Source: Marsupella aquatica
Taxonomy: Eukaryota > Plantae > Marchantiophyta
DNA: 64,000 nt
Direction of reading: 5' to 3'
Assembly (NCBI GenBank): GCA_973895155.1
Contig: OZ316893.1
Span: 16,460,645-16,524,644, forward strand
A program made the translations under genes and the position numbers. Positions 1-37,945 of the stretch are shown here, one piece after another. The first letter of the stretch is position 1. Every line of letters starts with the position of its first letter. The notes under the pieces were generated by a model that was given only the letters and a program-made list of their open reading frames with translations, had not been told where the DNA came from and searched no databases.

Positions 1-2
1 TT

Positions 3-188: not shown

Positions 189-239
189 CATTTGCGGTGT
201 GGAGCAGGCCAGAGGCTGCTCAGGTTTGGTAAGGGTGGA

Positions 240-4303: not shown

Positions 4304-4536
4304 AACTTAAGGAAGCGGCCACTGACACGCGCTGACTCAGACCGGCGGAGTGGCCGGCACACCACAAGCGTGAGCGGTTCAGCCTATGGGCGTCGAGGAG
4401 ACATCGGGGGATCGACAAGCCCTCAAGGTATAAAAGGGGAGCCAACCCTTTGTAGTGCACCAGTCCATCAGTCCACGCGCCAGCTTCGACCCCAGCTCTC
4501 TCGTTCGCTCTAAGTCACCACTACTATCTCCTCTGA

Positions 4537-6593: not shown

Positions 6594-7665
6594 CGGCGGA
6601 GTAGGAATAGATTAGGATTAGGACTAGCTTAGTCAGGCTCTTGGGATAGGCACCTGCCTTAGGTACAGCATCGCTGCCATGCTGTCCAGCCTGCGTAGAT
6701 TAGGATCTTCTAATAAGACACAGCCGTTTCCGGCCTGACTATCAGCTTAGTTAGGACCTTAGTCAGTGAATCTTCGGCGAGAGGACACCCCGTCCCTCGG
6801 CCCTTAGTATTTAGTGCACCCCTTGGTAGAGGCAGGGGTGGGTTTTAGTTGCAGAGTTGGGCGTCCGCGGTATGTGCGGGGAGTCCCGACCTCTGGGAAT
6901 GAAAGAGTACCAAGGGGAGGGGGTAGGACTAAGCTCGCCGGGTGAGTGTGGAGCCGGGCTCCATTGTAGTGTGCACCCTCAGCCTTGAACCTGTTCATTC
7001 CGGGGCTGTCGGGTCAACTAAGTGTACGCATATGTTCTCTTTGTAATAAAATCCTTTCCCATCATTTTCCTTTGTGTAAATCGAGATTGTATGCATGTGC
7101 GCGTGTATGTGTGTGGGTTTCTCGTATATGGGTGGCAGCGCCAGGCCGAACGCACTACCCAAGACGTGCACAGGGTGCAGCCTGCGGGTAAGTGGTTGCG
7201 AGCACGGGTTGAGGACCTGTATCATCGAATCCGAATCAAAGGCGGACAGCACGAAGGCTTAGAAGCCCTTAAGCCGGGGTCGATCCTGCTATCGACTAAG
7301 GTACGTTCTGACGGCGGAACACAAACCATACCTAGGAGGTGTCCGTATTTAGCAATATGCGCACTTAGCGCTAGTTTACGAGAATAAGGTGCATTACGTG
7401 TAATAGCTGTCTAAATTAGAAACTTAGAAATAATGAAAAACTTTTAAAAATTTTGTAGTTAGAAATAGATTAAACATAGCCAATTAATCTACTTTTAGAT
7501 ATAAGTAAGGTTAAGACTTAAGTTAGTCGGATTAATGGATAATATCCTGAGTAATTAGGTAGGGGTGAGACGAGCCAGAAGAAACTACTATCGATGTTCT
7601 CGAAGCACGGAAGGAAGATTGGTGCTGCCGCGTTTGACTGTGAGTTACACAGAGCGTATCGGTGT

Positions 7666-7753
7666 AAAGGCGCAACGGCGCTTTGGAGCAAAAGTGCAAC
7701 GACGTATTGGCAGAAAAGCGCAACAGCGCAATGGAGCAAAGGCGCAACAGCGG
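7666..7753 (+). repeat. 24-bp-period tandem repeat (AAAGGCGCAACGGCGC-like) x4; the motif recurs at 10625-10676 and ~50320
   Basis: aaaggcgcaacggcgc / aaaagtgcaacgacgt / aaaagcgcaacagcgc / aaaggcgcaacagcgg. Confidence 0.7.
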
Positions 7754-7814
7754 ATCACTTGGCATTGCTCTCTTCGGATCGATAGTTGGCGACAACGCCT
7801 TGTTTCTTGTTGCT

Positions 7815-10435
7815 ATGGCAGACAAAGGAGGAGAGATGACTGCGAGAGGAGTTCCTCTACCTAAGGCCGTCCCTATGACATACCCTACGATGAAAAGAAG
7901 CTTGCACGTTTTGAAGGAAGCACTGGCGGTCATGCACCTGAGTAAATTACTCACTCTGCCTTGGTCTGCAACTTCATTGAGTTTTCTGAAGGATTTCAGT
8001 GATGGGGCACGAATCGAAGTCGGTATGGTGGGAACTGCTCGGGCGAATCCAGAATTCTAGACTCTGCAATTTGTTGCTGATGCTTTCGACTGTCCTGCCA
8101 AAGGCGACAGCTTACACTCACGACAAGGAGAGACTGCGAGGCCTTATTTTTCTGGAACTCGAAACGTTCACCATGGATGGAAAATGGACCAGTGCACCGA
8201 TTATACTCTCAAAATCATTTTGGAATTTTTGATTCCAATTCTCCATCCCATCCGGCCACATATGATACCTATGTCACTTGCCAATACTATTGTGGCAAGT
8301 TGGAAGGGAGTTGCTCAGATAAATTGGGCCTTGTTGCTAAGACAGGTTATTTTATCTCAAGTAAAGAAGGTGAAAATGGACGAGTTCACTACTCTCCCTT
8401 CTTATCTTTGCCAGTTGTACTTTCATGGGAATTGCTTACTTCCAGGCGAACAAGAGGAGCGGACCAGACTGCTTGATGAATTTAATCTTAGTGAATCAGG
8501 AGACGAGGATACTGAAGGAGAAGATGCTGATGAAGTCCAACCGGAGGTTCCCCCACCTATCTGTTCAGAGGTTACCCCTCTTACCCATAGAGAACCACTT
8601 GTGGAACCCAGAAGCACCTCTTCACCAGTTCCTGATAACCCACTATCCCCTTTCGAAAATCTCAATCAGGATAGAAGACTTTACACCCCCCTCAATTCCA
8701 ATCTTGATGAGTATACATCCGAGCCAGAACCAGTAGAAACGTCTCCACCTTCTGTACCTGTAGTTGACATATCTATCCCTAATACTCTTCGATCACCCAC
8801 AGTCCCAACTCAGAATTTATCTGTAGATAGCTTGACCCCTTCTATGAGATCCGTAAGAGACCCTTCATGTTCAGCAAACCAACGGCTGATGAACTGAGAG
8901 TAGAATCTAATCAGCAAATTATTGATAAGTTAAGCAACTTATTGATCTGTGAACCTGAGGAGATAGTTGACTCTGTTGAGAGGTTAAGAGCAGCCTCTGT
9001 AACTCTGCCTGAACCTAGTAGTCCCGACTCTCTATACTCTCCAACCCAAGGTCCGACTCAGTTCTATCCCGAAGTGATGGAGCTATTTCGACCCACCTCC
9101 AATATTAGGGTTACAAATATTGCTGAAGCTGAACCAATGGAGGAAAATGATGCATCACCCAGGTTAGAGCTCCAACAGACACTATCTGCTTCCCCAGGTC
9201 ACTCTGCTGAACACTATCCTACTCTTATTAATAAAATGACTGACATGCTGGAGTGTGATGAGAGACACTTAATTGATGTCTTGGATGATCTTTTGCATAA
9301 GACATCAGCTTTACTTACCCGAGATCATCATCGAGAATATTGTGAGGATTTAGTCCATAGGCTTACACAGATTTTCGGATGCAACCCGAAGCAAGTCTAT
9401 TTTGCCGTCCGTTATCATACCTCAGCCTCTGGCTCTCCCATTTACTATTCTTCCCCTTCTTCCAGTCATTCACCCACCTCTCCTTACAGTCCTTCGAATC
9501 AACCAGACCAACTCTATCCTAGTTTTCCAGAACCTGAGATCACCCCTACAGGTGAACATCTTGCCACTTCTTATCCTGACACCCTTCCACCAGGTCAAGA
9601 TAAATCCTGTCAGGTTAATTTCATCCCTACACTGCATATTGACCCTAAGACCCCTCAGGAGAATATTACACAATTTGCTGAGTTTGTCAGAGTTTTAGAC
9701 CTTAGAACTCCTCCCATTTTAGAGTTTTGGCAATACTATCATAAGAAGAGAGTTGAATGTCTCTATATCCTGAAGCTTCATTTGAAGGATGTCACCCGCC
9801 TAGAGATAGCAGAGATGGATGAGATCTGGACAGAGGCTAAATATTTTCGCCCTATTCTTGCTGTCCTAATCCTAGTTGGACACATTGTATTGGAGAATGG
9901 AGATCTGGCCTTGGCATACTTCGGGAACTTACCTGCCTATGTCTTGGAATTCATCATCAACTTTTTGAGACAAACCAACAAACGATATCAGGTCAACCAT
10001 GGTGTCCTACCAGAGAAACCCTTTATTGTTCAACAATTTATATCACCAGTTGCTGAGAGTCAGAGAATCTGGAACAACATCACTTCCCAGCGATTGGCTG
10101 ATTACACCTTGAAGTGGCGGGAACTGTTACCTCGTGTCACCCCACTGCTATCACTTGCCAAGGACTCTGACACCTTCATCAACAAGTTTCCACGCAACCA
10201 CCATACTACTTGTTGTAGTTATGATTTGGTTGGCATCTATATGCAAGCTAGCAAGGTGAACACTATGTTTCACAGAAGACTACTCCCCATTCTAAATGCT
10301 GAACGACAAATCAGATCTCTTCCATTTGCTCGACATGATACACAGGCTATGGATTTCCTTCGAGAGGCGATTCAAACCGAGACATTCAGGAGTTTTCAAC
10401 AACCGGACCAGACAGCACTACTCCAACAAGATTAG
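7815..10435 (+). pseudogene. LTR-B accessory ORF (~870 codons; one stop, one frameshift)
   Basis: ATG 7815 is in frame with ORF 8184-8897 across TAG 8058-8060, then shifts into ORF 8867-10435. N-terminal domain LLTLPW...HGWKMDQC...LEFLIPILHP...NWA, followed by a P/S-rich linker and helical repeats. Confidence 0.7.
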
Positions 10436-12025
10436 TTCTCCTACAACAATAGTTAAGATCAGTCAATCTCTGCAATTTTAGTTAAATAGCTCAAGTAGTT
10501 AGAAAAGTCCCATACTTTTCCAGGAGGTAGTCCTTATGTAGCAGACCCTCCCCTGAAAGTATCGACTTAAACCGACATGTAGTTTAGAATATATGGCATT
10601 TTTAGTTTTGCTTAAGCGTAATTGCGCAAAGGCGCAACGGCGCTAGTGCTCCAAAGCGCAAAGGCGCAACGGCGCCTCCAACACTTAGAAAATTTTCCGG
10701 AAGAGTATATTTTATATCCGACAGCACTTTTCACCGATTTTATTAAGGCACTTAGACACCTCATAAAAGTCTAAAATTTTGCCAGCATGTAGCATGTATA
10801 TAAATCTTCCACCTAGGAAAGTTTCACCCCATTTTGACTTTTATGTTAGAAATTAAAATTCAGATAAACTCACTATTTATTAGTTTTACCACAAAAGTGC
10901 AAAAAACACTTTTACTCCAGTTTACACTAGGGATAACTTTTGGTTAGTTTTTCATTCCAACAACATTCTAGTGAACCTTGAGTACTCTTATAGCATATTT
11001 TCATACTTTTTACTTTAGTTTATGACCCTTAAGATATGAAAGGGCATGTCCTTTCATTATCTCTTTTCCCCTTTAGTTCCTGCCACCCTATATGTAGTTG
11101 AATTTATGTCACTTTTAGTGTGAAGAAATTTCATGAGCGCTCAGTTGCAAGATTGCAACTTTGTTACCTCCATTTGTAGCAAGCACTCCATTGCATATGA
11201 GTACTTAATACAAAGAAATTCTTTCCCCTTCAAGTCTAAAGGAATGAGAAGTTTGGACCCTTGAAGTAAAATTATTGTGATTGTTAAATCTTTTGAGTAT
11301 GTGGAAATAGATTCCTTGCTGGTGATGTTTCACATATTCCTTAGTTCTTGATGCATAGTTTTTGACGTGACATTGCTTGTGCACGGGATGTAAAGATTGT
11401 TACTTATCAATTACTTATGGCTTCAAATTTGATCATGATGGTGTCTCTTATTTGTGACACAAAGTACCGATTGGATACAGAAGTGATTGATTACTAGTCT
11501 CCACTCAGTACCTTGGAAGGAAAAGTTGAGACATGTTGACGGCATTTTAGTAATCATCCTAGTACCGTAATCCTTTCTAGAAATGTTCTTGCAGATATAC
11601 CACCTAAATCATATCAAATGAAGTTATGTTGAGGAGTCACCTTGGTTGTTTCCTAACTCCCTCACCATACCTCAAGATTTTCATTGTGTTTTATTAATTG
11701 TTTCCATTTGTTAATTTTATTTACAATGTCAAGCAGACATTTAAAACTATGCCTTGCTGAGCAACCATAGTAAAAGGCTCAACCTTTGTGTTTCTGTTAC
11801 CTTATTCATTCATAAGTGCTAAATCATAGAAAATCATTCCTTACATGTTCTTCCATGGGAACGAATACCGAGTTTTGGATCTTAAATGTTTATTTCTGTC
11901 CTTAGTGTGATACTACATTACGTGCTTCCCTTCCTGCCCGAACCCTCAGATTTACGAGGGATGTGCCCGTCTAAGCTGAAGTCTGAGTTAAGGCCGCAGC
12001 CGATGACGTGACATAGCCTTTGTTT

Positions 12026-12043
12026 TGGCGCTAGATGGAGGGG
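12026..12043 (+). promoter_or_regulatory. PBS of element A (tRNA-Asn-like)
   Basis: TGGCGCTAGATGGAGGGG resembles the TGGCGCTAGAAGG-type PBS and lies 12 nt after the LTR end. Confidence 0.65.
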
Positions 12044-12136: not shown

Positions 12137-15100
12137 ATGCCCGTCACTCGTTCTCAAGCAGCTTACTTGAGGAGATTGACCAGCGAACGAGAAAGTGCAA
12201 CCACGACAAGTTCCGATTCTTCGGACTCGGAAGACTCGCACTCGCCCCGACGTATGAACATACCCCCAGGACCTTCAGGGTCCGGTTTGACCGGTCCTTC
12301 TGCGGTTCCACCACCACCACCACCACCACCACCTATGGCAGCCGCTCCACCGATGGCCCACGCTGCTCAAGCTCCTCCACAAATATTGCAACGATCGCAA
12401 TTTCATTATTGACCTTTCAAGGGGCGTCATGGGGATGATCCGGATGAATGGTTGGATGAGTTTGAAGCCACTGCTAAAGCTAATGGGGAAGATGCCATTA
12501 AGCTAACTGTCCTCCCGAGAGTGATGCGGGGAGAAGCTCGTCCATGGTACAACTCGTTGCCACCCGGGACTACATGGGCACAATTCCAAGCTGCATTGCT
12601 GCAGGAGTTTCGTGCCATTGGATCGGAACAGCGTTCTCTATTAAAGATTGGCCAGCTTCGCATGGGAAAGAAGGAGTCCCTGCGGAAGTTCATTTAGAAG
12701 TTTCAGAAACTTGCGGCCAAGATCCGGCCCAGGCCGGGAGACGTGCTCCAGCTTACATGGTTCCTTCATGGTTTGCCCACGAATATGCAATTCTGGGTAC
12801 GCCAGAATAATCCGATTTCAATGCAGGCGGCCATAGCGTGCGCCGAAAATTTCCGGGAGTCCACCTATAACTCCCGGCGGAGCCAGCGAGCACGCCGCAA
12901 GAAGGGTAAGTACGAGACCTTCAATGACAGTGACTCCGAATCGGACGAGAGGAAGAAGAAATGCAAGAAGAAAAAGAAACATCATTCGACCTCGTCCAGC
13001 TCGGAGATGGAATCCAGTTCGGATTCAGCTTCAAGCACCGGATCCTCTACCTCCAATTCATCAGGAAGTGACTCGGAGAGCGAAAGCCGGAGCAAAAAGA
13101 AGAAGAGACGAGTGAAGGAGGGGAAGATCAAACCCCGGGCGTGAAGAACGATACCAGATCCAAAGGCTGCCAAAGCAGACAAGCTGAACGAAATCACGAA
13201 TCGACTCAAAGCACTGTCAGTACATCTTGCGGAAAAGCCGGTGGAGAAGAAGAAGCCATCTGAGATTTGAGCTCATGCGTGGTGTTCAAAGTGCTTCCAA
13301 TCCGGCCATGTGGTGCAGGAATGCCCAAGGTGGAAGAATCGAGTTCACCAAGTAGAGCTGGATGATGTTGACAACCCGGGTCCCGAATCGGAGTCCACAG
13401 AGTATTTCTTTGAGGACCCTCCTGATTCCGTGTACCAGATTTCAACGGTAGGTCCGCGTAATTTAGCGGGTAGAACTGCGTACCCCTACCCAAACAATGG
13501 CCGGAGTTTCCAGGTTATCAGTAACCCAAGCATCCCTCCTAAGCCAGGGATTTGGCGATCCCCGGTTTGTTATAACTGTGAAAAGCCAGGACACTTTGCA
13601 AGGGAATGCACCGAACCAAGACGTCAGGGAGATGGCCGAGGCACCCCACTATGTCAAGTCTGCAAAACGGAGGCTCATTCCATGGCCAACTGTCCGTTGG
13701 TAATCGTTGCTCGAATGAGCGCAGCTAGACCGGCCCAGGCTGGACCGGCCACGAGCGATGCAGTCGTCCAAATGATTGCTGTAGAATGGCAAGATGACAA
13801 CACCGAGTGGGTGAATTTGGTGGACGTAGCAGAGCACCCTGATCCATTGGATGAGGCCGAGTGCTACCGAGTGTCGACAAGGGCCGAACGGAAGGAAGAG
13901 AAGACGGAGGAGAAACGAAGGAAAAAGCAAGATACTACTCCGGTGCAGCCAGCGATAGATATACCCCCAGAGAAGGACGAGGACTACCGACGGGATGACC
14001 CGAAGCTATTTTTCCCCCACATCGAAGAATTGGTAAAGAAACAGCTGGAGGCCTACGAAGCTCGGGAATACCAAAAGGCAATCGATAAGGACATCAAAGC
14101 AGCCGAGACCGCCCGGCGCCAAGAGCAAGAGGAGCAAGAAAATCAAGAGGAAGCCAAGCTGCAGCCGAAAGAGGATAAAAAGGAGAACTACAATATTAAG
14201 GAAGACGTGAAGAGTTGCCCGGTTACAACGACGGTGGGGCAACTGCTGCAGAACAACCCACAGTATAGACGGCAACTAAGGGAGTTGCTCGTGGGTCGCC
14301 GAAGGAGGAGACTACCTCGAGTTGGGATCGCGGACTGCAACATGATATGCGAGGACCTTGGAGCGCCGGACATCTCGATCGAAATTAATAATTGTACCAT
14401 CAAGATGGTTCTTGTAGACGGAGGAGCGGGAGTCAACATCATGACTGAAGAAACGTCAATCAAGTTAGGATACCTCACGTATCAACCCACAGCCCGAGCT
14501 ATCAGATTAGCAAACGGGGCAAGGGTCCTCCCATTAGGCACGCTCACACGAGTGCTCACTCTGGTGGGAGGGGTGGAGTTCTATCTCAACTTCCTAGTTA
14601 TGAGGCCGGTTTGTCCCTCCTCTTACCCGGTTCTTCTGGGCAGGCCGTGGCTGTACGGTGGCCGCGTAGTCAAGGATTGGGGAAAGAAGGAGCTACGGTT
14701 CGGGGAACCCACCGTACGGGTATCATGGGCAATGGACGATTATCAAGGAGAAACCCCACAAGGACCCGAGGAATATGATTTGGAGACCTTGGAGGAAGAG
14801 GAACTCAATATGATTGAACTCATCTCGTCCCTGTCCGAGGAAGATGTCTTTGGAGTTGAAGCAACCCGCGAAACACATCTCCTAAATTACCCGAGGGCTG
14901 CCATTGAGTCCACCCCAAGCACATCTACTACCGGGGATGAGGAAACGCACGAACAACTCGTCGAGACGGAGGACACGGCTCCAGCTAAGCAGGGAGCCGA
15001 GGCTGCTTCTACCGTTGCAGAGCCTCGTGACCATGAACCAGCCCAACAACCGCCCGAGGCCGAAAACTCGAGACCGAGACATAAGAAACGAGTCTCATGG

Positions 15101-18100
15101 GATCCGTCCATTCCGCAATTGGAGGAAGTAACTCCAATCCCGAGACCAATCCCGGTTCCACCCATGTACGGAGGAGTTCGGTTAGCCGAGCTTGATGCGA
15201 GCCTGGACCCGAGCCTGCGAAACCAAGTTGAAGTCATCAGGAAGGAGCACTACCGGAAGTACACCATTGGGATGGACAAATCTTTTAACCTGGGCCACGC
15301 TCTGACAGGGGAGGCTGAAAAATCCATCCAAGCTTTGCTCAAGGAATATGAAGATGTGTTTGCATGGAGTCATCATGATTTAACAGGCGTCTCCCCCGAG
15401 TTGGGAGAACACACGATCGATCTGAACCTAGGAGCCCATGCGGTAGGGCAGCGACAACGTCGCATGAACCCGAGGTACTCCATCTTAGTGAAGGAGGAAA
15501 TTGATCGTCTCCTCGCCGCCAATATCATCTACCCGGTAATGGCCAGCGACTGGGTCTCTCCCATTGTCATTGTACCAAAGAAGGGAGGTACGGATGGAAA
15601 ACCTAAGATTTGTATTTGTCAGGACTACCGTAAGCTGAACGACGCAACCCGCAAAGACCATTACCCATTACCATTCACGGATATGGTTCTAGATATGGTA
15701 GCCCGAAATGAAATCTATACATTTCTTGACGGGTATTCAGGTTATAACCAAATCTGGATTCGCCTCGCAGATCAGCTCAAAACAACTTTCACTATGGAGT
15801 GGGTGACTTTTGCATTTCGGAGGATGCCTTTCGGTCTGTGTAACGCCCCGGCCATGTTTCAGCGCCTGATGATGAATATCTTCCATGATTTCCTACGGGA
15901 ATTTCTGGAGATATTTATCGATGACTTTGCCATCTTCGGAACCGTTGCCATGCACCCCGAACACCTAAGACGAACGTTGCAACGATGCCGAGATGTCAAC
16001 CTCAAACTACATCCCGCCAAATGCTTCTTCGGGGTAGAGGAGGGGGTGTTACTCGGGCATCGTGTGTCCAAACGGGGCATTGAGGTGGACCAAGAGAAAG
16101 TTGCGGCCTGGATGGCAGTGGTGTTCCCCGTGGATCAAAAACCAGTACGATCCTTCTTGGGCTGCGTAGGGTATTACCGTCGGTTCATTAAAGATTTTGC
16201 TAAAATAGCTTTGCCCCTAACAGAGATGATGAAAAAGGATGCGGTGATCGAGGAGACCCCAAGGAGACGGGTTGCTTTCGAAGAACTCCGTAAAAGACTC
16301 ACCACCGCACCTATCATGGTCACTCCAGACTGGAACAAGGAGTTCCACGTGTATGTCGACGTGTCAGGGTTCTGTATCGGGTCTGTGCTTAGTCAGCTTG
16401 ATACAGACGGACACGATCACCCCATCTACTTCGCTAGTCGACAATTATTCACAGCCAAAAAAAATTATTCCCCCACGGATCGAGAGGCACTGGGCATAAT
16501 CTACTCATGTAAGAAGTTCCTGCACTATCTGCTCGGCTACAAGGTCATCTTCCACACGGATCACGACAGCCTGAAGTACATGGTCAACAAAGTAGACGTA
16601 ACGGGACGAATAGCCCGTTGGGTGCTACTTCTCCAGGAATTTAACTACGAAGTTCGGGTTCGGCCAGGAAAGGCACACCTCAATGTCGACTTCTTTTCAC
16701 GTCTGGACGGCGTACCAGTCGATCAGCCAATTGATGATATTTTTCCGGATGAGGAGTTGTTCCACGTAGGGGAGGGGACACCAACGTGGTACGGCTCGAT
16801 AATCACCTTCCTTTTAACAGGCCGCATCCCTGACGGCATCAATCAGGAGGCCGCCGCTGTGTTTCTACGGAAAGCCGGGCCTTACGTCATGGTACAGGGT
16901 CACCTACATAAGGAAGGAGTTAATGGGAAGTTACGACGCTGCTTGCTGCTTGGAGTATAAGGAGACGCTTATAGTGATGCGGGCCTTGCATGAAGAAGAA
17001 GCTGGAGGCCATTTCGCGGTGGTCACGACAGCCCGAAAGATTCTGGACTCGGGGTATTGGTGGCCGACGTTGCATCGGGATGTACAGCGCTTCATTAAGG
17101 GCTGTGACCTGTGTCAGCGGGCTGGGGCCCCGAGACAGGCTCATCATCACCCTCTCACATCTGTGCTTCCATTGGCACCATTCGAAAAATGGGGAATTGA
17201 TTATATCGGGCCGTTTACTCCGTTACCCGAAGGCGAAGATGCAGGTACATCCTACTAGCTATTGATTACTCCACCAAGTGGGTCGAAGCGCGGGCTACGG
17301 TAAAGGACGATGCCGCAACCAGTGCCAGATTCTTATACGAACAGATTTTCACCCGATTCGGCCCGCCCTTAGAATTGGTAAGCGATCGTGGAACCCACTT
17401 CCTCAATGACACCGTAGCCCAGCTTACGGAGCGTTACCTAGTCAAGCACCGCAAGACTACCCCGTATCATCCTAAAGCCAATGGGATGGCGGAGAGAGCA
17501 AATGGTATCATTGGGAAGATCCTCAACAAAACTGTAGCTGCGCACAAAACAGATTGGGATGATAAGTTGTACGCAGCGGTGTACTCGTATAATCTCGCTT
17601 ACAAAACTACTACGAGTCACAGCCCGTACTTTCTCGTGTTCAGCCAACATTCGTTGGTGCCCGTCGAGTTTGAAGTACACACTCCACGAGTCAGCATTCG
17701 GGATCGCTTACCTGAATCTGAAAGTTCGTCAGACCGAGCTTATCGGATTGAAGCCTTGGAAGAAGCACGGCTACTAGCAGCTCGACACGCCGTGAAGAAA
17801 CAGGCAACTTCAAAGAAGCAGCACGACAAAGGACTACGGAGGGTCGACGTCGTGGCAAGCGATCTAGTCCTTCTGTATGATAGTAGGTACATGTAGTTTC
17901 CAGGGAAGCTTCATACCCGGTGGTTAGGGCCCTTCCTTGTCAATCAGATCTACCGTAACGGATCTTTAGAGCTTGCGACGTATGCCGGCGATTTACTCCC
18001 CATGCGAATCAGCTACGATCGTGTAAAAAAGTACCACCATCAAGATGACGACGCCAAGAGTGATGTTTGCGAGGACGCTTCACAATTAAGCAGGGAGCTA

Positions 18101-18133
18101 TGTGACGCCGCCGGTACGGCGGTTAATGAGTGA
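12137..18133 (+). pseudogene. pol: Gag-Pol polyprotein of element A (Gag with 3 CCHC knuckles, PR, RT, RNase H, INT)
   Basis: ORFs 12137, 12452, 12743 and 13310 share one frame separated by stops. Motifs: CYNCEKPGHFAREC, PR VDGGAG, RT LDGYSGYNQ/MPFGLCNAP/FIDD, RH VDVSG...DREALG, INT GHF...CDLCQR/WGIDYIGP/SDRGTHF. Frameshifts near 16950 and 17220. Confidence 0.93.
18087..18100 (+). promoter_or_regulatory. Polypurine tract of element A
   Basis: aagcagggagcta lies immediately before TGTGACG; the homologous aagtagggggcta occurs in the minus-strand element at ~48157-48169. Confidence 0.7.
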
Positions 18134-18459
18134 TTCGGTCTAACTGCGCTCGGCACGCGCATTAGGAGTGTCTTAGACCACTATTATTAGCATAACGACA
18201 GTATTTAGGTAATCATTATGGGTAGGATATCATTAGGCAATAAGGGGGAATTCAGGTTCAGACTGGCGGTTGGTCGCTATTCGCACACCCAGGTTACAAG
18301 TGTGGAGGGGCCCCTCCCTCGGGTCCGTATAACAAACTTAAGGAAGCGGCCACTGACACGCACTGACTCAGACCGGCGGAGTGGCCGGCACACCACAAGC
18401 GTGAGCGATTCAGCCTATGGGAGTCGAGGAGACGTCGGGGGATCGACAAGCCCTCAAGG

Positions 18460-18466
18460 TATAAAA
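18460..18466 (+). promoter_or_regulatory. TATA box of LTR-A
   Basis: TATAAAAGG lies ~100 nt upstream of ATG 18568 and is conserved in the 5' LTR (~4429) and in the diverged minus copy (~35306-35312). Confidence 0.55.
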
Positions 18467-18567
18467 GGGGAGCCAACCCTTTGTAGTGCACCAGTCCATC
18501 AGTCCACGCGCCAGCTTCAACCCCAGCTCTCTCGTTCGCTCTAAGTTGCCACTACTATCTCCTCTGA

Positions 18568-21210
18568 ATGTCGCACATGATCCTCTCCAGCTCGGCCATT
18601 CGATTCTGGACGCAGTTCCTATCTACCGGAAGGCACTTGGCCGACTCATTGAAACACGCCAACCCGCGCAGATACGAAATCGAATGCGAGTACGAGAGAG
18701 CCATCCGCCTAACAGGACGACACCACTACATCCTTAACTTTGACTACCCGTCTCAGAGCGAGCTTTACCGACCAGCACAGGTATCCGGGTACTTCTTCAA
18801 CGGAGACAAATATATCGGGTTCTGGGAAGCATTGCTTTGGCTTCCGGACGAGGTCTTCAATATCCCGGGTACGATCGACTTGCAGCGACATCACTTCGAC
18901 CACATCCCTGCTCAGGTTCGGGCTATCATCAACAGTGAGTCCAGCACTACCCATTCGACAAGGTCGTCTGCACTCGCTTCGGAGAACTTCTACCAGCACC
19001 TACAGAGCTTCATAGGAACTCGGCCAGCAACCAACATGACCAACTCAGTCGTACCCGTACCCGTACCCGTACCCATACAACCTCAGGCTCAGCTTCAGCT
19101 TCAGCCTCAGCCGCAGCCTAGCCAAACCCCACCACCGATCGCCCAGCCAGCACAAGTACGCTCCGTCATCAACACTGTGGATCTTAGCGATGACGACGAG
19201 GCTACCCTACCCTTGACCAGGCGGCCCAGAGGAACAAGCGCTCAGGGGGCCGACACTATATCGTCCCCACCCCCTGCTCTGACCCCAGGAGCGGTCCCGG
19301 CAGACAACATGGTGACCGTGGCCGACCCGGGCCCGTTACTAACGGCAGTAGCACTACCCAGGCCCGATCGGGAGGATGGGGAGGTGTCACCTTCCCCAAG
19401 CCAGTCACGGGGGAAGAAGAGGAAGGAATCCGCCACTGCATCCGGGTTACCGTTGGCCACGGTAGCCGTGGCCAAGGTGATGATGCACCGCATGGGGGAA
19501 AACATTCACAAAAACATCCTCCATCCCAAGCATGCGGTGTACCTGAAGACTCAGGGATTCGAGCACCTCGCCTCCCTCCCCTGGAACACTTGCAGGTACT
19601 ACGGGGAGGACATGACGGAGTTCGTCAGGAATTATGACGACGAGCGTCAACATACTCGGCTGCGGGGAAGGAGTATGTCCCTCACGGAAGAACGGCTCAG
19701 GATGATCTTCGGGTTACCGGAAGGTGACCATCGAGTCGAATCACGGGCTCCCGGGGGCAAGGGAGCCAAGTACCAATCTTCAAGTTTTCCCTCAGAGGGA
19801 GCAGTGGACAACGGGTTCGTGATGAAGACCTGCCTCATCCCCGAGATAGCTGAGCGACTGGAGTTCCAGAGGTACGCCCTCCACATAATGGAACCCCGGG
19901 GGGAGATCTCCGCCGCCCAGGTTATCCAGGTCGAGAACTATCGACCTAGGAGGTGGGCATCGTACTTCGCTAAGAAATTCCATGAAGAGATGGAGCGGCG
20001 AAGGAAGACGCTGTACATTGGCGGGAAGGCGTATTTCGCTAGCCACATCGAGATCATTCTTGAGTGGTACGCCCGGTTTGATCGACGAACCCTTCCCCGT
20101 GTCAACGTTACAAAGCTGGTCCCAGCTAGGTGGGTTTTCCCGGCCTTGGAGAGACGGCCCCAACCCGAGGCCCGAAGTCCAGCGGACACGCCAGCTTCAC
20201 CCACCCCACCTCCACAAGTAGCTGTAGTCGTAACCGAGGAGGTACCGGATGGGTCGGGTGTCGCAACCATTGATGCGACCCAACAGGCCGAGCTAAGTAC
20301 AGAAGTCGGTACGGCGGAGGTCTTACCCGAGCCTGGTTCTCCCAAAGACCCACCGGTGGCTATTCCGGAGAACCGGACATTGCTACAGGAGGACGCTCCA
20401 GCCCCTTCCAACGTTACGTCCCCAGGGCTGGACGTCACTGCCCCGGCCCCCGCGCGTGTTGACGTCTGCCCGTGCCTAACTCTGGACAGGCACAACCTGG
20501 ACCACCCGGAACTCTTCGTACCGGGTACATTTCTGAATGGGCTTCTGGGAGATTTCTCTCATCAAATTGCCCGGGATACCGGGGAGTTCATGGCCCGGAA
20601 GGTAGCCTATTTCTTCAATGAGGAGTTGGTTGCCGCAGTAAAGGCAGGTCGGGCCCAGTCAGAGGCCCTTCAGAGGATAGAGCGGTACCGGGTGGAGTCC
20701 GTGTACCTAAAGAACGAAGTTGCGGCTCAAGAGGCTGAGCTTCGGCAACTATGACCCAAGGTTGCAGCCGCCGATGAGTTGTTAGCAAAGGCGCACGCTC
20801 TTACCGCCCTAGCCGAACAGGCCAAAGCTAGGAACGAGGCCGAGATTACACGACTCCGGAACCAGATTGACAGTTTGAAGAATCAAACTGTCACCTGGCA
20901 GAAAGACCTGGAGGAGGCCGAGGAACGGGCCCAACGGGACACGGCGGAGATAGCCACGCTGCAGGCCAAGGTGGCACGGCTCCAAACCGAGGCCGAGAAG
21001 TAGGACCAGCTGGCGGGTAAACTGACAAGTGACGCCCAGCAGTTGGAGGAGGCTTGTCAGGAGGCAACAGAGGAGACGGACGCGGCGAGGCGAGAGAACG
21101 AATCTCTACTGGACCAGGTCCAGCTCCTCAAGGCGGACAATGACAGGCTTCGAAGGCAGCGGGATGGCCGCTCCCATTCAGGCGGCTCTGGCAAGCGTGC
21201 CAGGCATTAG
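18568..21210 (+). pseudogene. LTR-A accessory ORF, 3'-LTR copy (880 aa when repaired)
   Basis: The 728-aa ORF continues in frame past TGA 20752 and TAG 21001 (CGA and CAG in the 5'-LTR copy). The EFVRNYD...RGRSMSLTEERLRMIFGLP segment resembles Athila-ORF/plant transposon protein domains; heptad coiled coil at the C-terminus. Confidence 0.85.
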
Positions 21211-22105
21211 CGGCGGAGTAGGAATAGATTAGGATTAGGACTAGCTTAGTCAGGCTCTTGGGACAGGCACCTGCCTTAGGTACAGCATCGCTGCCATGCT
21301 GTCCAGCCTGCATAGATTAGGATCTTCTAATAAGACACAGCCGTTTCCGGCCTGACTGTCAGCTTAGTTAGGACCTTAGTCAGTGAATCTTTGGCGAGAG
21401 GACACCCCGTCCCTCGGCCCTTAGTATTTAGTGCACCCCTTGGTAGAGGCAGGGGGGTTTTTAGTTGCAGAGTTGGGCGTCCGCGGTATGTGCGGGGAGT
21501 CCCGACCTCTGGGAATGAAAGAGTACCAAGGGGAGGGGGTAGGACTAAGCTCGCCGGGCGAGTGCGGAGCCGGGCTCCGTTGTAGTGTGCACCCTCGGCC
21601 TTGAACCTGTTTATTCCGGGGCTGTCGGGTCAACTAAGTGTACGCATATGTTCCCTTTGTAGTAAAAGCCTTTCCCATCATTTTCCTTCGTGTAAATCGA
21701 GATTGTATGCATGTGCGCGTGTATGTGTGTGGGTTTCTCGTATATGGGTGGCAGCGCCAGGCCGAACGCACTACCCGAGACGTGCATAGGGTGCAGCCTG
21801 CAGGTAAGTGGTTGCGAGCACAGGTTGAGGACCTGTATCATCGAATTTGGATCTAAGGCGGACAGCACGAAGGCTTAGAAGCCCTTAAGCCGGGGTCGAT
21901 CCTGCTATCGACTAAGGTACGTTCCGACGGCGGAACACAAACCATACCTAGGAGGTGTCCATATTTAGCAGTATGCGCACTTAGCGCTAGTTTATGAGAA
22001 TAAGGTGCATTACGTGCTTCCCTTCCTGCCCGAACCCTCAGATTTACGAGGGATGTGCCCGTCTAAGCTGAAGTCTGAGTTAAGGCCGCAGCCGATGACG
22101 TGACA

Positions 22106-24440
22106 CTGAGGTGGTTGATGTTGATGACTTCTACTTACTCCACCTATGCAAAAGATAGAGCCATGGAGTACGGGGAGATGTGTGGGGAACTTGCGCTCAG
22201 CATCTTTGGGGAGGAGTTGGAGCAAGGACCCTTTTTCCAGAGGGAGATGTTGGAGGAGCACCGATTAGAAGAAGCGGTGGCTTTGGAGAGAAGCAAGAAG
22301 GACGAGGTCATCCGGCGGCTTAGGGAGATGGAAGCCGAGGTGGAAGACCTGCAAACAGCCAAGAAAGCCCAAGATGAGCTGCGGATTAAGCGGCATGAGC
22401 TAAACATCATGCAAGGACAATTGGATGCCGCTCAGTCTGGCAATCAGATTATCAAAGATAAAGTGACTCGGACCCAAGGAAAGTTGGTCGGCGTTGTCAA
22501 GGATAGGGAAAAGTGGAAGCAGGAGCTGAGGGACGTAGAGGAGGCCCACATAACCACCAACAACCGGGCCATGGCGGAGACTCAAAGAAAGGAGAGGGCG
22601 TTGAAAGGAGAGCTCGAGGATATCCGCGGAGCCCTTGAGCAGAAGGAGGCCGAGTTAGGGAAATCCTATCAAGGGATTATTGCGCTACAACAAGAGCTTG
22701 CGTCCCTGACGGCCAGCTCGACCAGACTTATGCCAAGATGAATAAGATGGAGTCTGAGGTCGTAGCGGAGCTCGACAAGGAGCTAAGAGCAACCCAGGAG
22801 GAGAGGGCTACCTTAAAATTGGAATTGGAGGAAGCCAAAAAGGAGCTGCAGGAGGGACGGAAGGACCTAGAGGAAGCCTAGGAGGAGTTGGAGGAAACCA
22901 CTAGGAAGATGGAGAACTTACAGCGGCGGGCCGACAACCAAACGGAGCGGCTGAAGAAACAGGCCACAGTATTTAAGTGCTTAGCTTCATCTGGTCCAAC
23001 TCCAATTGTGGGAACTCCATTGGGTACTGGCCGAAAGACAAGCCGAGACACACGCCCCGGTGTCGGAGGTAGGTAGCAAGGGGAAGGGACCAGCTACCGA
23101 AATAGGGAAGAAGAAGAAGCGGAAACCTTCTGGGTCTAGGAGTTATACGGCTTACCAAGCCATTGTAACCCAGGAGGTCAATCCGGCACCAACCTCCAAC
23201 ATGGTCATGGCAATAGATCCACCTGTTGAAGAAGGTGGGGATGGCAAGGCCGAGGCCGGAACAGCTATTGATGAAGCCAAGGTACCGGATCCTCCACTAG
23301 AACATGACGGGGAGGCCGAAGCTGTATCGAAGGCCGTGACCGATGCTGAGGCCGAAGCCGAGGGTGGACCCAGTCAAGCCGATGAAGAGTTGACTCGGTT
23401 TGGGGCAGGTAATCTGTCAGAGGACGGACCGACGGCAGTGGCTGCGGGGGAAGCGTTGGGGGCGTCCATTGAGGATCCGCCATCGGTGTCGTGATGATGC
23501 AAGGGCGCTGTTCCTTTTAGGAAGGGTGGACGTGGAGGTAGGAGGCGTGAGTGGGCAGGGTGGGCTTAGATCTCCAAGTTTAGGATTAGGATCAAGACCA
23601 GGAGACGGCCCTGACACTTAGATTAGTGGGATGGCGGATCCACTGGTAGGAGCAACACTTGTGCTCCTGCCTCACTGTACAGTTAGGTAGATTACAGGTA
23701 GGATAGATTAAGCTTACGCAATGAAGTTCTGGACTATCCGCTGCCTGGATAAATACCTGGGCAGCGGGGAGTCCAGGGCCTCTTCTTTAGCAAGTTTTTA
23801 GTTGCACCAGCAGGGCTGGGATCAAGTAGTAAGAGAAGCTCTCGGTTAGTTATACAGTGACCCTTGTGTATATTCATGTTTCCTCATGCCTAAGAACTGA
23901 ATAGAGTTGGCCTCACGGCTTAGTTCGCAGAGCTTGTGTATGAGATGTACTGTTTGTATGGCAAGTGCCTGGTATAACTCAGTCAGAAGGAGTCATTTTG
24001 CTATTTGTGTGTCGCATTAACTTGTGTGAAGAGTGCCCACATCAATGAAGGGAAGTAGCAAGGGAGTGAGAGTTGGATGTGTCGAGCTAAGAGAGGTCTT
24101 AGCGGCTTAACCAAGCCAATTGGGGATCATTCCGGCGGCGGAATCCAAACATACCTAATGGAAGACCAGGAGAGGAATACAAGGGAAGGCCTAGAATAGG
24201 CCGGCTAAGTATCTCATGACCCGATGAAGGATCTGTCCAGTATATGTGTGTAAAATGTTAATAGTAGTAGAAGGAGAGTTAACAGCATCCCATGCCGCTA
24301 AGCCGCGGAAACGGCCTCGCCGAGGACAAAACCTGCAGGAATCGCCTTGAGCAAGGGGGTTTTCTTGGGTTTGGGGAGCCATGGGACGCACCACAGGGGT
24401 ACTAAGCATCGGACGTTGACGACCACTAGCAAAGACGTGA
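22106..24440 (+). mobile_element. Fragment of a related LTR family (C) with a decayed coiled-coil ORF; target of element A
   Basis: Coiled-coil ORF pieces at 22106-23494. Motif ttccggcggcggaatccaaacatacct (~24130) matches LTR-A ttccgacggcggaacacaaaccatacct. Possible end gacgtga at ~24440. Confidence 0.55.
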
Positions 24441-26111: not shown

Positions 26112-26386
26112 AACTGTCCAAGAATGGACCTGAAGGATGTTTGTTGCATCCTACAATTTTGTAGATTTTGTAGTTTTGGATCAAAGATCAACATTTTGTA
26201 ATTTTTGTGACCAAAGTAAGGTAATCAATGAGACTCTGCTTGCTGGTCTACTTCAGATGTTAAATAACTTACTTTGGTGATTTCTAATCAAAATCATCAT
26301 AGTTTTTGAGTCGACGTTCATGCTCCTTTTGTCTTGTTTGCAGGCCTGTGGGAGGTGGATGTAGAGTGGTCAGAGTGTTTCACAAC

Positions 26387-29300
26387 ATGCCTTCTGCCAC
26401 TGTATTTCAAGTAGACTTAGAGTCCGGAGAACGAAAACCGGTGTCCTCATATAGTTATAGGAAAGGAGAAACCTTTGTAGATGCCAGACAGAAGTTGGTG
26501 GCACACTTTGATTTTGAGTTCCAATTCTTAGATGTCAATCTATCTAGTAGGATGCGCAAGTCATGGGAGGTAGTAAATTCCTTAGACGATTGTGGGGGGG
26601 AAGTAATCATCATCCCCAAAAACCCCAGAGATGCTGCAGACTTGCCTGTCCAGAGTAAGGCAGTTCTGTCACAACAAGTCCTTGGAAGCAGCAATGCCTC
26701 CAATGGGCCTGATATCACAGCCAATGATGATCGTGCTGGTTCTCCCATATTGGAAGAACCCCCACTTGAACAGTCAACACCAGATTTAGCTGGCCCATCA
26801 GAGGAAGCTCACTCCCAGGTCAGTTTGGGGTCAGAGTTAATGACCAATGAATTAAAGAGGACATGGTCTTCATGTGTAGACAAATTTAAGGATCATATGG
26901 AGTCAATACAATGTGCTCACCACAAGTGGAGGGTGAGAACCTAGGACAAAGACAATGTGCCATGTGGACACATTGAATGTTGTGAGTGTGACACTCGCCA
27001 TGGTGTGACAAGGGTTTGATGGATAAGACATCCGTCAATAATGCCTTCACAAATTTCAAAAAGAAGCATATGATTTCATCAAAGCATGCCGCTCGTGTGG
27101 CATCTAACAGGGGTGAGAGGCTACACTCTAAGGAGGTTGCACGGAGGGCCCAAGCAAATACATTGACTGATCAAGCCATACTTGAGCAGCACCTAAAGAT
27201 TGTGCAAAAGGTTAATGAATCTCAGACTGTCGGGAAAGAGACATTTACAGTTTTAGGCGATGTGGAGAAGGACCCCTTGGAGTTACACAAATTCAAACTT
27301 TTGTGCAATTTCTGTTCAGAACACCTTGTGCTCATTCCAAAACAACGGAATTTGGAGCCCAATCTTGAAAGTCATTGTAATAGCATCAGTCATCTAAATT
27401 ATGTCACAAGGAGTCAAATGCCTGCTAGAGGAGAACCTATTCTATTTGGACGGCCTGGAAGACCTCGCCAAGTGGATGCAAGGGATGTCAAACAAAGGAC
27501 CATCCAAGGCTTTTTAACTCGGAGGCCAAGTGGAGGGCCGTCTAGCAGTTCCTCTTGAGTGTCTGCAGAAGAAGAAAGAGGTGGGCACTTATCTCTGTTG
27601 TGTTGGGGTCTTTGGCGTGATGCGGTCAAGTATGGTTCAGAAACCAGGCCTATTAAGGGAATCTTAAATGATCAGCTTAAACTTGAGGGACTTTGGTTTG
27701 CAGAGCCCTTGGTTGTAGAAGATGTGTTCTGTGTAACTGGGCAGGAAACCTATCACATTGAAGGTCTCTTTAGGCACAAGCTTTGCAATAGATTATCAAA
27801 ACTAGGGGGTGGCTTTCAAGACTTGACATGTGAACATTGTTTTAGTATAAAAGGGGAACCCAACTTTAGGCTTAGGGTTGCTAGAGAATTCAAGCCTCTG
27901 AGAAAAGAGGAAGCAGGGGGACTGGGAAGGGTCGTAGGTTAGATTACCTCATGGTTCCCGAGGTCCAGCAACAAGCAAAGTGTTATAGGAATCGAGTTCT
28001 GAGAGAATGAAAGCTACAGAGAATTCTTAGTCATAGATTACTGATGGTTAAGGCCCGTGTCCCACCCATTGGGGAAGTCTGCCTTAATTACCAGGAACCA
28101 AATAAGGCCACAGTGCTGAAGTTTTGTCAATCCATAGTCTTGGCACACAAAAGGGGTGCCTTTGGAGGGAGAGGTGCCCTGTGGGATATGTTGTCAGACA
28201 TAGCTTCGAACCTAAACAAAGAGAAGCAGGGTTACCGATATAAGGCAGGAACAAAGCTTCTCTGCCAAACACTCTTTTTGCATGGTGGGAGGCGCGTTGT
28301 TGATTGCCTTTCCAGTAATGGAATAGGTCCTAGTTTGAACACCCTTTAACAAGATAGGAGAGGGATGGCTGTGTTCCGTGCAGGAATTCATGCGTCTCAA
28401 TTCAAGTTCATCGCCAAAGTGTACTCACAATTAAAGGATCGACTTGGCATATGTGGACCGATTCCCTGTTTTATGGCAGAGGATGAGACTGTAGTGAAAA
28501 AACCGTGAGGTAATTACTATCTCACTTCATAACCTTTGGGTTGATGTACCTGCTGTTGTATATTTGAATATGTACACCAAAAAGGCAGCAACCTAAAAAG
28601 TCCTTCACCTTACGTTTGCAGATGGCTGCCAAAACATGATACTCTTATTGGGTTTTGTGGGAAGAGAACTGAAGGCCACCAATGTGTAGCAGGCTTGGAG
28701 GTGAAGGTGGGGGAGGGAGAAGCTGGGCTGCCATCGTCGATTCTTTTGAGAATTTCCGTGTAGGGAACCTAGCAAGGTGTATCATGGTCAATCCATTGGT
28801 TGTAGGGCTTCCTCACTTGGCTGTAATGGGCGATATAACATGTAATAAGTTTGATGGCCCTTGGGTCAGGCGCCAGTGGGACAAAGTGGAATCTCTCTGG
28901 ACAACTCATTGCCTGGAATCGGTGGGCCCTCTATTGGGACATGCCAGTGATGGGGATTCACGAAGGAGAAAGCTTATGTTGGAGGATTATAGTGGGAGAG
29001 GGATTGAGGGGCCAAGGCAAAACCTGGGTTGGGAAGGTTGGCAGCTGACTCACTCGATTACGACTACTGCCCAGGCCTCTGGAGGCTATGTTGTAGGACT
29101 CCATGATCAGGATTATATCCATAATGGGAAGAAGCTAGTGAACCCACTTGATTCAAGTGCCAGGATTTTGAAACTAGGAGCAGGTGTTGCAACCATAAGT
29201 CACTTGATACACTTAGAGGAGTTATATGAGGTGGCTCAGCATGGCTTGAACAAAGAGGACATACGTCGCAGAGATCGGCAGAATTGGGCAAGTGCACAAC

Positions 29301-30970
29301 GACTTTGTAGTCGTAAAGTCAGTAATTCTTTGCGACTGCTACGAGACAGAGCAGATGCTAGGGTTGAGCTTACACTTGGAATAGAGGTGTACATTAGGAT
29401 ATGTGCGGATTATTTGGACATTTTTCTTAACACTCAGCTCAGTTTGCGCGAGAGGATTGTTCTCTATGGGAAGGTGGGATTCTTTTTCAGGCTTTGGCGT
29501 CTATGGTGTTTTCATGGGAACCACTCAGTTGGGGGTAACACACACCCTATCACCTTCACCCATAGCTGTATCCCCATGCAAACATTCCTTGACATTCAAA
29601 TGTCGGTGCATTTTGTTGTTCTTTTGATAATCCAATTCAGGGACAAATTCCGAGATCTACCTGTACCCTTGCATTTGACTGGGTCAGATTCTTGTGAGCA
29701 GTTTTTTTCCAAAGTTGGGGGCATGAGGGGCAATGAGCAAAGCTATGACATATCAGAATTGGTGGAATGTGCTACTAATCTGAACCGGTTGGCTGCAATG
29801 GATTTGACTGAAGGAATTATGGGTGTGGGGAAGAGTCATAAAAAACACTCAACCATTTGGATGGGACTGCACCCAATAGAAACTGGGGTTGATGCAATAG
29901 CAGATCAAGCAAATTATACAGGAATCAAAACAAATGCAGAGGTTATCATTGCTTTGCAGGATGGGTTGGTATTGGCCCAGAGTATTGCAACTGAGTGTCA
30001 AATGAACCCTTCCACATCGGCCAGGGACAAGGTGTGGTGGACTTCACCTTGGACGACTGAGGCGAAAGGGGCTAAGTATGGTGGATGGTGTGATGTGAAT
30101 GTTGAGTCATTAGTTGATGTGGATGAAGGTTTGGATGATGAACCACCACCATTAGTACAGCCTGTTGTCCCAATGGAACAGACTCCTGAGGAGATTGCCA
30201 TGTTTTTAGATCCAGAGGTAGTGGATGCTAGCGCTGCAATTGAGGTTACCATGGATGCAATGCATTCTGACTTGGTGTATGGTGCCCCTAGACAGGAGTT
30301 TAAACCAACGGTATCTTACAAAGACAGGAGTATCTACAAAAGTACCCTGGTGAGCCAATTAGTGGGCAACCCACACCTTAGTAAGGACCGTCTCACTCGA
30401 GTGAAGCAGAGTATCTATTTCAACAATTTAGTGGATAAACCAAATGTGCGTGAAGGATCTCCATCCATGTTTATGACAGTTGGAAGTGACTGTGGAGTAT
30501 TTTTTGTTGATGACACTCCTCAGGGTAGAACCACTCGAAATACAGAGGCCATAGCTCGAGCAATGAAAGGGAAGGGGCATGCCAAGAAGTCAACCGATTC
30601 TAAAAGGCCTAGAGGTGAAGCTGTCACAATGACTTCAGTTAGAGGAGTGAAATATAAGTGGTGGATTGGACGAGTCCAAAGCATCCACAGGAAATATGGG
30701 AACAAGATCGGAAGATCAAGGGAAGCATTGGATTTGCTTGATAGGCCTGGTACTGAATCATGTTGTGAAGTGAGGTTCAATTGGTTTACTCCAATCGGGG
30801 CAACTGGGTGTAAGTTTAAGTATGATATGTGCGATCCTAGCAGCATTCCGTTGGAGGCTATCATTTCAACAGTGAGCTTTACTGTAGATCCATTGTACCC
30901 AAAAATCTTCATATTACATCCTGATGATGTAATAGCTCTTGACGATTTTGTAAAGAATAGAATAGTTTAA
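26387..30970 (+). pseudogene. P-element-superfamily-like DDE transposase with N-terminal C2H2-like fingers and a C-terminal BAH-like region; intron 28510-28621
   Basis: Motifs in P-transposase order: AEDET (D1), GHASDGD (D2), QDYIHNGKK (DxxH..K), DRQNWASAQRL, GSDSCEQFFS (E). The GT...AG intron joins ...TVR|WLPKHDTLIGFCG. Several stops and frameshifts upstream of ORF 28682-30970. Confidence 0.7.
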
Positions 30971-32166
30971 TTCATTTTCGGTAAGCACTTACCTTTCATA
31001 CTTCTATCCGTTTGTTAATTATAGTTAGTCTGTTCTGTACATTTGAATGACATGTAGCTAGTGATATTTATGAGCCTCTTACTCAAGTACATATTACCCA
31101 TATGAGTGCTATTGCTATTGATATGTGTTTTGGGGATCTATTGTTGGGTCAGGTAAATCCAAATCATAGCGTGCAACATTGTACCAGCAGAGTTGGTGCA
31201 GCCCGGGTCTCAGGTTGTTGTGAAATCATGGGATCATCACAATTTTTCATGAGAAAGGTCCACATTAGGAGAGCTTACCCTCCTGTGCGGCCTTCAGTAC
31301 ATAGCAGAAGGCAGCCTATGATACTCCGAGACCTTAATGCAAGAATGAAGAGGACATCTGCCTCTGATCCTGGGATGAACTCAGTCAAGGAGGAAGTAGA
31401 AGTGCAGCTTGGTGATAATTCAGTGAAGAGCTCGACGAAGGGGAGCCGAATGCAGGGCCTCAATGGCAGTGTAGTCATGAGTTGTTGTGGTGATGATGTT
31501 TGTTTCTCAAGTGATCCTGTGAAGCCTGAGCAGGCGGCTGAATCCTGTCCAAAAATGAGTGCTTATGAAGTTGAGGAGTCCAATATTATGGCAGCAGGCG
31601 TGCCTGCTGCTTTTCTTGATTACATATTTTGGCCTGTATTGGGGCCTGTACAATATTATTCTATTCATGAAGCTGATGATTAGTGTTTTGAGTATTGTTT
31701 TGTGCCTATCAGTGTGCATAGGTTCCATGCCTCTTAGTGTAGCACCTGCTTAGCTCCAGTGTTTCTGAGGGGATTGCAATGGAGCTCTTAGCTATCCAAC
31801 CAGTATTATAGGTAGTAGTATAGGTAGTAACAAAAGTCCTCCATATATGAGGAAGGCATCAATTACACTTTTGTTATTGCCACAAGGCTGTATCCTAGTG
31901 GCAATAAGTATGCCACTAATAAAAACCCTACTCTCAGTACTTCAATCATGCGTTTGATGTATGGTGGCATTTTTTTTTACTAATGAATGAAGGGTGTTTA
32001 AAATTCATTTTTTCACTAAATTATAAGAATTCAAAGGGCTCAAATTATTCAGTGAAAACATAAATTTATAACTAACAAGGGAAATATGAAAAGTCCAAAA
32101 AATTCTAACAAGGGGTACTAGGGGGAGGCTTGATCTCAAGGGGGTTCACTTAATTTACTAGGAGTG

Positions 32167-37932: not shown

Positions 37933-37945
37933 TGTTATCAGCACG
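37933..37945 (+). promoter_or_regulatory. PBS (half-tRNA-iMet type, as in Bianca-like Copia)
   Basis: TGTTATCAGCACG lies directly after the 5' LTR. Confidence 0.65.

Follow-up and report, generated by a model that had tools for sequence, protein, structure and literature searches.

An accessory gene under selection, with a predicted VANC-like domain, inside the long terminal repeat of a Ty3/Gypsy retrotransposon

The 64,000-nucleotide window of contig OZ316893.1 analysed here (the whole stretch of DNA, to which all positions refer) contains a retrotransposon, element A, whose long terminal repeats (LTRs) harbor an open reading frame (ORF) of their own. The 3' LTR (18101–22105, forward strand) is 4005 bp long and runs from TG to CA, with a 7/9-nt terminal inverted match. 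The ORF (18568–21210, forward strand; 880 codons, of which 729 and 812 are stops) lies wholly inside it, as a preliminary description of an LTR of about 4 kb with an ORF of about 880 residues had claimed. The 5' boundary of the LTR is fixed independently by a diverged copy, A', which begins with the same TGTGACGCC inside unrelated long interspersed nuclear element (LINE) flank. The 5' LTR (4304–7398 plus 11923–12013, forward strand) is 5'-truncated, lacking its first 233 nt, and carries a 586-nt internal deletion equivalent to 18854–19439; its ORF is broken by a frameshift and by a stop at codon 35. It is further split by a 4519-bp solo LTR of a second family, B, flanked by the target duplication TTACG, and the join across B is seen in contigs from three of four sequencing runs. 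Over 3094 aligned sites the two LTRs of A differ at 83 (97.3% identity; Kimura two-parameter distance 0.0275), and the same ORF is present in both with different lesions (stops 729 and 812 against stop 35, the frameshift and the 586-nt deletion), also as described. Because the 5' LTR lacks its outer end, the flanks of element A cannot be compared for a target-site duplication (TSD). A diverged third copy had been placed at 32603–35213; the copy is real, but its extent is refined here to a 3'-truncated LTR, A' (35668–32178, reverse strand), which carries the same ORF in broken form and is colinear with A through the ORF.

The sole canonical TATA box found in LTR A (TATAAAA, 18460–18466, forward strand) is kept in A' and lies 108 nt upstream of the ORF, in accord with the distance of about 100 nt given previously. 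The encoded protein comprises an N-terminal helical domain (residues 5–126; 18580–18945, forward strand), a central domain with a predicted VANC21/DUF1985/PMD-like fold (residues 301–516; 19468–20115, forward strand) with a basic motif, RGKKRK, just upstream of it, and a long helix and coiled coil (20518–21207, forward strand) ending in a basic KRARH tail that may be akin to a nuclear localization signal (NLS). No transmembrane segment was found in the ORF protein (maximum KD19 1.27). A TTAG-rich, strand-specific block follows the stop codon (21211–21510, forward strand; 11 copies against a null mean of 2.1), and is also found in A' and in a further LTR-like region, D. Beyond it are a candidate polyadenylation region followed by a T/GT-rich tract (21661–21735, forward strand; AATAAA in the 5' LTR at 7045, a variant in the 3' LTR) and a putative splice donor (21801–21809, forward strand), which reads CAG/GTAAGT in the 3' LTR only and CGG/GTAAGT in the 5' LTR. 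Part of the non-coding 3' portion of the LTR (21400–21630) is 88–91% identical between A and A', above the identity of the ORF, which implies that this part holds a structured RNA or a strong cis-acting element.

Between A and A', the ratio of nonsynonymous to synonymous substitution rates (dN/dS) over the ORF is 0.18 (839 codons, gapped and stop codons skipped; pN/pS 0.34, 95% confidence interval 0.30–0.38) at a dS of about 1.4, far from the value near 1 that the preliminary description had named as telling against a gene. Constraint differs along the protein, with dN/dS of 0.14 in the N-terminal domain, 0.09 in the central domain and 0.15 in the coil, against 0.35 and 0.50 in the linkers; shifted frames (0.67–2.21) and non-coding parts (0.59–1.30) served as controls. 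Protein identity follows the same division, 64–76% in globular blocks and 33–44% in linkers, bearing out the earlier observation that the blocks stay conserved while the linkers diverge. The same description had considered that the ORF might be a separate insertion; no terminal inverted repeat (TIR) pair brackets it, the best arms being 14–23 nt and all internal. None of the contig joints listed (15/42; largest 633 nt) skips the ORF. Summed contig depth, which is not a copy number, is several-fold higher over the ORF than over gag or integrase in runs X1–X4, in agreement with an LTR-borne gene. These results support a genuine accessory gene, maintained by selection, that belongs to the LTR and is not a separate insertion.

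A phmmer search with the central 237 residues matched 42 proteins among 1.84 billion; of ten relatives looked up, the five whose representative carries a species name are all from Calypogeia fissa. The relatives include CAM6086213.1. The whole architecture is shared by P0165 (906 residues), which aligns over residues 8–879 with 28% identity (E 3e-89), and the N-terminal domain is present in P0165, P0168, P0177, P0145, P0160 and P0174. A repeat protein, P0159, was excluded from alignments A1 and A2. Word-index protein searches, one of them limited to proteins of 1303–3720 residues and hence uninformative, and a profile search of PDB sequences gave no match. Aligning the domain profile to P0021 with hhalign gave none either, which is likewise uninformative, as P0021 has no more than a short Transposase_32 piece.

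An AlphaFold model (728 residues) was computed from a 50-row alignment, and the whole model rather than the lone domain was used in fold searches. Residues 5–126 and 301–505 form confident domains (predicted local distance difference test, pLDDT, mostly >90; about 90 for the N-terminal domain), separated by disordered linkers and followed by the long helix. The top Foldseek match of the central domain in the PDB is the VANC21–DNA crystal structure (E 0.05, probability 0.97; runner-up E 2.9). VIA-align, run over 48,161 chains, likewise places VANC21–DNA first (Z 8.2, rmsd 4.0, 201 residues aligned; next 5.9), and nearly all rows below it match the long helix only. Re-alignment to VANC21 gives Z 8.8 over 216 residues. 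This match spans the whole central domain and agrees with ESM Atlas features, which lead to a DUF1985 cluster (0.90) and a PMD cluster (0.89, on 14% of members). The fold predicted for the central domain is that of VANC21 (DUF1985/PMD-like). No clear match to the N-terminal domain emerged from whole-model searches, and the viral structure library returned nothing meaningful (best E 0.006, TM 0.06).

An earlier lead towards PMD-type families gains weight from the VANC21 match, as published work relates VANC to PMD. The PMD of MAIL1 resembles the DUF1985 of VANC, and PMD-A is encoded by retrotransposons (bioRxiv 2024.09.27.615353); VANC also resembles MAIN and is predicted to form coiled-coil oligomers (PMC13547354). 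The binding sites of VANC are short motifs that recur in non-coding DNA, and the protein causes hypomethylation (PMC5735166). Literature searches outside subscription journals found no paper on the VANC21 structure.

The central domain is not confined to LTR A. Solo LTR B (7399–11917, forward strand; TG..CA, TSD TTACG) lacks DNA similarity to LTR A, yet contains a broken ORF (about 7815–10435) with the same domain: a hidden Markov model (HMM) built from external relatives only gives it 17.7 bits, the highest of 2000 shuffles reaching 3.9. Among 1539 ORF pieces in the window this is the sole central-domain match outside A and A', and searches of LTR C, region D and 43700–48130 with the domain HMMs gave no match. 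Copies of AAAGGCGCAACGG flank the B ORF on either side, and all 11 matches to this motif in the window are in B and the shorter LTR B2 (0.73 expected). Two B-type LTRs have lost most of the gene: solo LTR B2 (49828–51577, forward strand; 1750 bp, TSD TTCTG), with about 55 C-terminal ORF codons left, and the short LTR B3 (62232–64000, forward strand), which keeps the last 55 or so codons and runs off the window. The statement that the gene survives in every solo LTR was therefore too strong, B2 and B3 keeping these last codons only and all copies in the window being broken. B3 has 10 copies of the palindrome GACGCTT-N4-AAGCGTC at 62716–63263 (0.10 expected), absent elsewhere in the window. These palindromes mostly sit where B has AAAGGCGCAACGG repeats. 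In non-coding LTR DNA of the A family, spaced palindromes are enriched in the 3' LTR (30, with 11.4 expected) but not in A' (10, with 8.0 expected), and no single palindrome recurs. The sole canonical TATA of B is at 10797, past the end of the ORF, and B2 keeps it. Motif arrays that differ between B-type LTRs, together with gene-less variants, form the pattern that would be expected for a trans-acting factor with fast-changing targets, and suggest a link between motif and protein. As further observations on these LTRs, B2 and B3 are both inserted into pol of related Gypsy elements, and contig depth at the 3' end of B is several-fold above that of the B ORF.

Element A differs from its neighbors in CpG content. 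Observed/expected CpG ratios in three homologous pol stretches are 0.90, 0.89 and 0.98 in A against 0.10, 0.10 and 0.17 in Gypsy relatives within the window. Of the transitions separating the two LTRs of A, 46/72 fall at CpG, a context that accounts for roughly one quarter of C/G sites, indicating that this copy was methylated after insertion. Since pol of A is CpG-rich although the inserted copy was methylated, the propagating A lineage appears to have avoided CpG decay.

Based on the predicted fold and these patterns, the ORF product is probably a nuclear, sequence-specific, VANC/PMD-like anti-silencing factor acting in trans on the DNA of its own family; we put the probability of this reading at roughly 0.58. 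The preliminary description had proposed no function. Transcription of the gene would begin from the TATA at 18460 and its polyadenylation would take place near 21661, still inside the LTR, making any intact LTR, solo LTRs included, a self-contained expression unit. The protein would oligomerize through its coiled coil, enter the nucleus by its basic motifs, bind short family-specific motifs in non-coding LTR DNA and lower methylation there. Action in trans would allow gene-less variants such as B2 and B3 to ride along. The stronger proposal, that the LTR holds a complete VANC-like system (gene, promoter and family-specific targets) and that each intact solo LTR is a trans-acting demethylation cassette, is put forward tentatively, and we would not bet on it at even odds.

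The position of the gene relative to the genomic RNA can be read in two ways. In B the TATA comes after the ORF and has been retained in B2, favoring a gene in U3 and a genomic RNA that starts downstream of the ORF, an arrangement to which we give slightly better than an even chance. The single canonical TATA of A, upstream of the ORF, favors a genomic RNA that starts there, with the gene in R/U5 and gag expressed by splicing or re-initiation; this too is plausible, at somewhat under even odds.

Several observations weigh against an anti-silencing factor. Every ORF copy within the window is broken, and the two LTRs of A give a dN/dS of 0.73 (pN/pS confidence interval 0.42–1.57), consistent with neutral decay after insertion. 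The fold match is middling (10–11% identity, rmsd 4.0, Foldseek E 0.05), and its Z score of 8.2–8.8 is near the 7–8 often reached by models without a true match. Pfam PMD, DUF1985 and Transposase_32 are unmatched in the ORF and in 41 of the 42 relatives, the remaining one being an unrelated repeat protein. No significant repeated motif was found in the non-coding LTR of A (top 6-mer p 0.065, 10-mer p 0.83) or in A', and the B3 array, in an LTR without the domain, could be a host transcription-factor site. The CpG pattern is also uneven: domain-bearing B has an observed/expected ratio of 0.52 (ORF 0.42) and A' of 0.71, domain-free region 52900–60700 reaches 0.80, and the CpG-poor pol controls are three stretches whose LTRs are partly inside the window. 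Finally, a shared fold is no proof of function, as host PMD proteins MAIN and MAIL1 help to silence transposable elements (TEs; PMC8616336).

An LTR-borne PMD-like factor could instead serve another nuclear role, as a transcriptional activator of the LTR, in integration targeting or in import of the pre-integration complex. Such roles were proposed for plant accessory ORFs (aORFs) by Vicient and Casacuberta (PMC7264820), fit the same selection and fold evidence, and sit well with the failure to find a target motif in A. On its own, however, a role of this kind leaves the CpG contrast and the subfamily-specific motif arrays of B-type LTRs unexplained, and we consider it unlikely, though the most serious competitor. 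Self-repression, or a MAIN/MAIL1-like role in curbing family activity, possibly kept for host benefit, would accord with the need for host PMD proteins in TE silencing (PMC8616336), and residence in the LTR would make gene dose follow copy number, which a brake on copy number would require. Yet the carrier lineage is abundant, judged by its high summed contig depth, and CpG-rich, and MAIN and MAIL1 act against Polycomb silencing (bioRxiv 2024.09.27.615353), making repression an improbable role. Even less probable is that a DNA transposon with a VANC gene, or a host gene, once landed in the LTR and left the ORF behind as a passive relic. VANC is a gene of Mutator-like elements and B-type LTRs without most of the ORF exist; an ancient capture is possible as the origin of the ORF. 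Against a passive relic, no TIR pair surrounds the ORF, A' is colinear from the first base of the LTR, the domains retain dN/dS of 0.09–0.15 at a dS of about 1.4, a result that by itself goes most of the way to refuting this reading, and none of the listed contig joints skips the ORF. The least probable reading is an env-like or movement protein, suggested by the coiled coil and by the env-like label of some plant Gypsy extra ORFs (PMC7264820), given the lack of a hydrophobic segment or meaningful viral structure match, the basic NLS-like motifs and a top fold match that is a DNA-binding protein.

The proposed anti-silencing by the LTR-borne protein is best compared with VANC of Arabidopsis VANDAL elements (Mutator-like; PMC5735166, PDB entries 9LNJ/9LNK). 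The central-domain folds are alike by prediction, and both proteins have a coiled coil and conserved domains separated by low-complexity linkers that vary. Arrays of short family-specific motifs, as known from non-coding DNA of VANDALs, are seen here in B-type LTRs and do not reach significance in A or A'. VANC, however, sits in VANDAL DNA transposons, whereas the present ORF is in a Gypsy LTR without TIRs; identity is 10–11%, and the ORF protein has an additional N-terminal domain. VANC has been described as dicot-specific (PMC13547354) and PMD as angiosperm-only (PMC8616336).

Among plant Gypsy elements, extra ORFs include PMD PF10536 in Ogre, Transposase_28 in Retand and ORF-1 PF03078 in Athila (PMC6317226, PMC7264820). 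The extra ORFs of OTA Gypsy elements resemble the present case in being accessory ORFs of non-chromovirus Gypsy elements with very long LTRs and a PMD-related fold (here predicted). They are located in the internal region, where reviews place plant aORFs (PMC7264820), while in element A the gene is in the LTR, without a Pfam match, and an additional RNase H (aRH) is unmatched. For PF10536 in particular, Pfam gave no match in the ORF, and the ESM Atlas lead to PMD was 0.89. ORF0 of rice Retrosat2, RIRE3 and RIRE8 is similar in lying upstream of gag-pol, under selection, in elements with LTRs >3 kb (PMC3485330); compared by description only, Retrosat2 ORF0 is treated apart from the LTR and is grass-specific (PMC3485330). 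In literature searches, which did not cover subscription journals, Repbase or supplements, no account of a VANC/PMD-like gene residing in an LTR came to light, and passages of PMC6431247, PMC12885004, PMC12859917 and PMC10398659 added no LTR-resident case.

Accessory genes in LTRs are familiar from retroviruses: mouse mammary tumor virus sag and human immunodeficiency virus nef are located in U3 and duplicated in both LTRs. They are much shorter than the 880-codon ORF, immune-related and of unrelated fold. Solo-LTR formation is the host's main route of retrotransposon removal, and with the gene inside the LTR it would leave the gene behind. For the PMD-like extra ORFs that plant Gypsy elements carry, counter-silencing has been proposed (PMC8616336); it has been shown only for VANC of DNA transposons. 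A predicted VANC-like fold encoded in an LTR, retained CpGs and, in a sister family, arrays of motifs come together here and make the anti-silencing idea directly testable. By this prediction, a fold so far assigned to angiosperms or dicots alone also occurs in liverwort retroelements, and such proteins could supply new sequence-specific epigenome tools. If each intact solo LTR is indeed a demethylation cassette, plant retrotransposons would gain their first sequence-specific anti-silencer and the VANC/PMD fold would reach back to bryophyte retroelements; intact solo LTRs would keep the family active, gene-less variants included.

The internal region of element A encodes, in order, gag, protease, reverse transcriptase (RT), RNase H and integrase (about 12137–18040, forward strand; decayed, observed/expected CpG 0.9), with Pfam matches zf-CCHC, protease, RVT_1, RT_RNaseH and rve. 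The closest RT relatives bearing names are from Calypogeia fissa (65–70%) and Riccia sorocarpa (58–63%), angiosperm elements being mostly at 40–55%. In a midpoint-rooted RT tree of 28/89 usable rows, built without labelled REXdb references or outgroup, A groups with Calypogeia and Riccia rows apart from the angiosperm rows, presumably Athila, with 100/100 support. No Pfam match to aRH or a chromodomain was obtained in element A, in which a single RNase H is directly followed by integrase; Tat/Ogre, in contrast, has aRH. We read A as a non-chromovirus Ty3/Gypsy element of bryophytes near Athila, with tentative clade placement, and its sequence points to a likely liverwort host lineage. Athila differs in carrying its extra ORF between pol and the 3' LTR rather than inside the LTR. 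Athila ORF-1 (PF03078) found no match in A, and no extra ORF lies between pol and the 3' LTR: integrase homology stops at about 18040, some 60 nt short of the LTR start (18101), and a polypurine tract-like run, AAGCAGGGAG, occupies 18088–18097 (forward strand).

A primer binding site (PBS)-like sequence, TGGCGCTAGATGGAGGG (12026–12042, forward strand), which we take to be of the tRNA-Asn type, lies 12 nt from the LTR end; ARAGORN did not find a tRNA. The spacer (12014–12025) is 12 nt in A and 13 nt in many contigs. As the PBS search window in PMC6317226 is 0–5 nt from the LTR, standard pipelines could overlook such elements. The gag region has a long Ser/Lys-rich low-complexity insert at 12820–13140, preceding the zinc knuckles.

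On its 5' side, element A is fused through its truncated LTR directly to element C (1–4303), which has a different G-rich, CpG-poor long LTR and gag. The 3' flank of A (22106–24430) resembles the 3' part of another LTR (region D), with pieces of a coiled-coil ORF (22079–23491) and a TTAG block; region D and A (about 21922–21950) have a 29-nt word in common (86%, E 2e-4). Elsewhere in the window, 26300–31700 and 52900–60700 contain long ORFs without a Pfam match (765 residues at 28673; 571 residues at 52926, reverse strand) that are probably DNA-transposon-like, and palindromes of TAGCGCCTGGCGCTA are repeated in the latter region (54766–54912, 59187, 56298 and 60061). A Copia element (37749–43039) with 184-bp LTRs that are 97.8% identical is inserted in a LINE.

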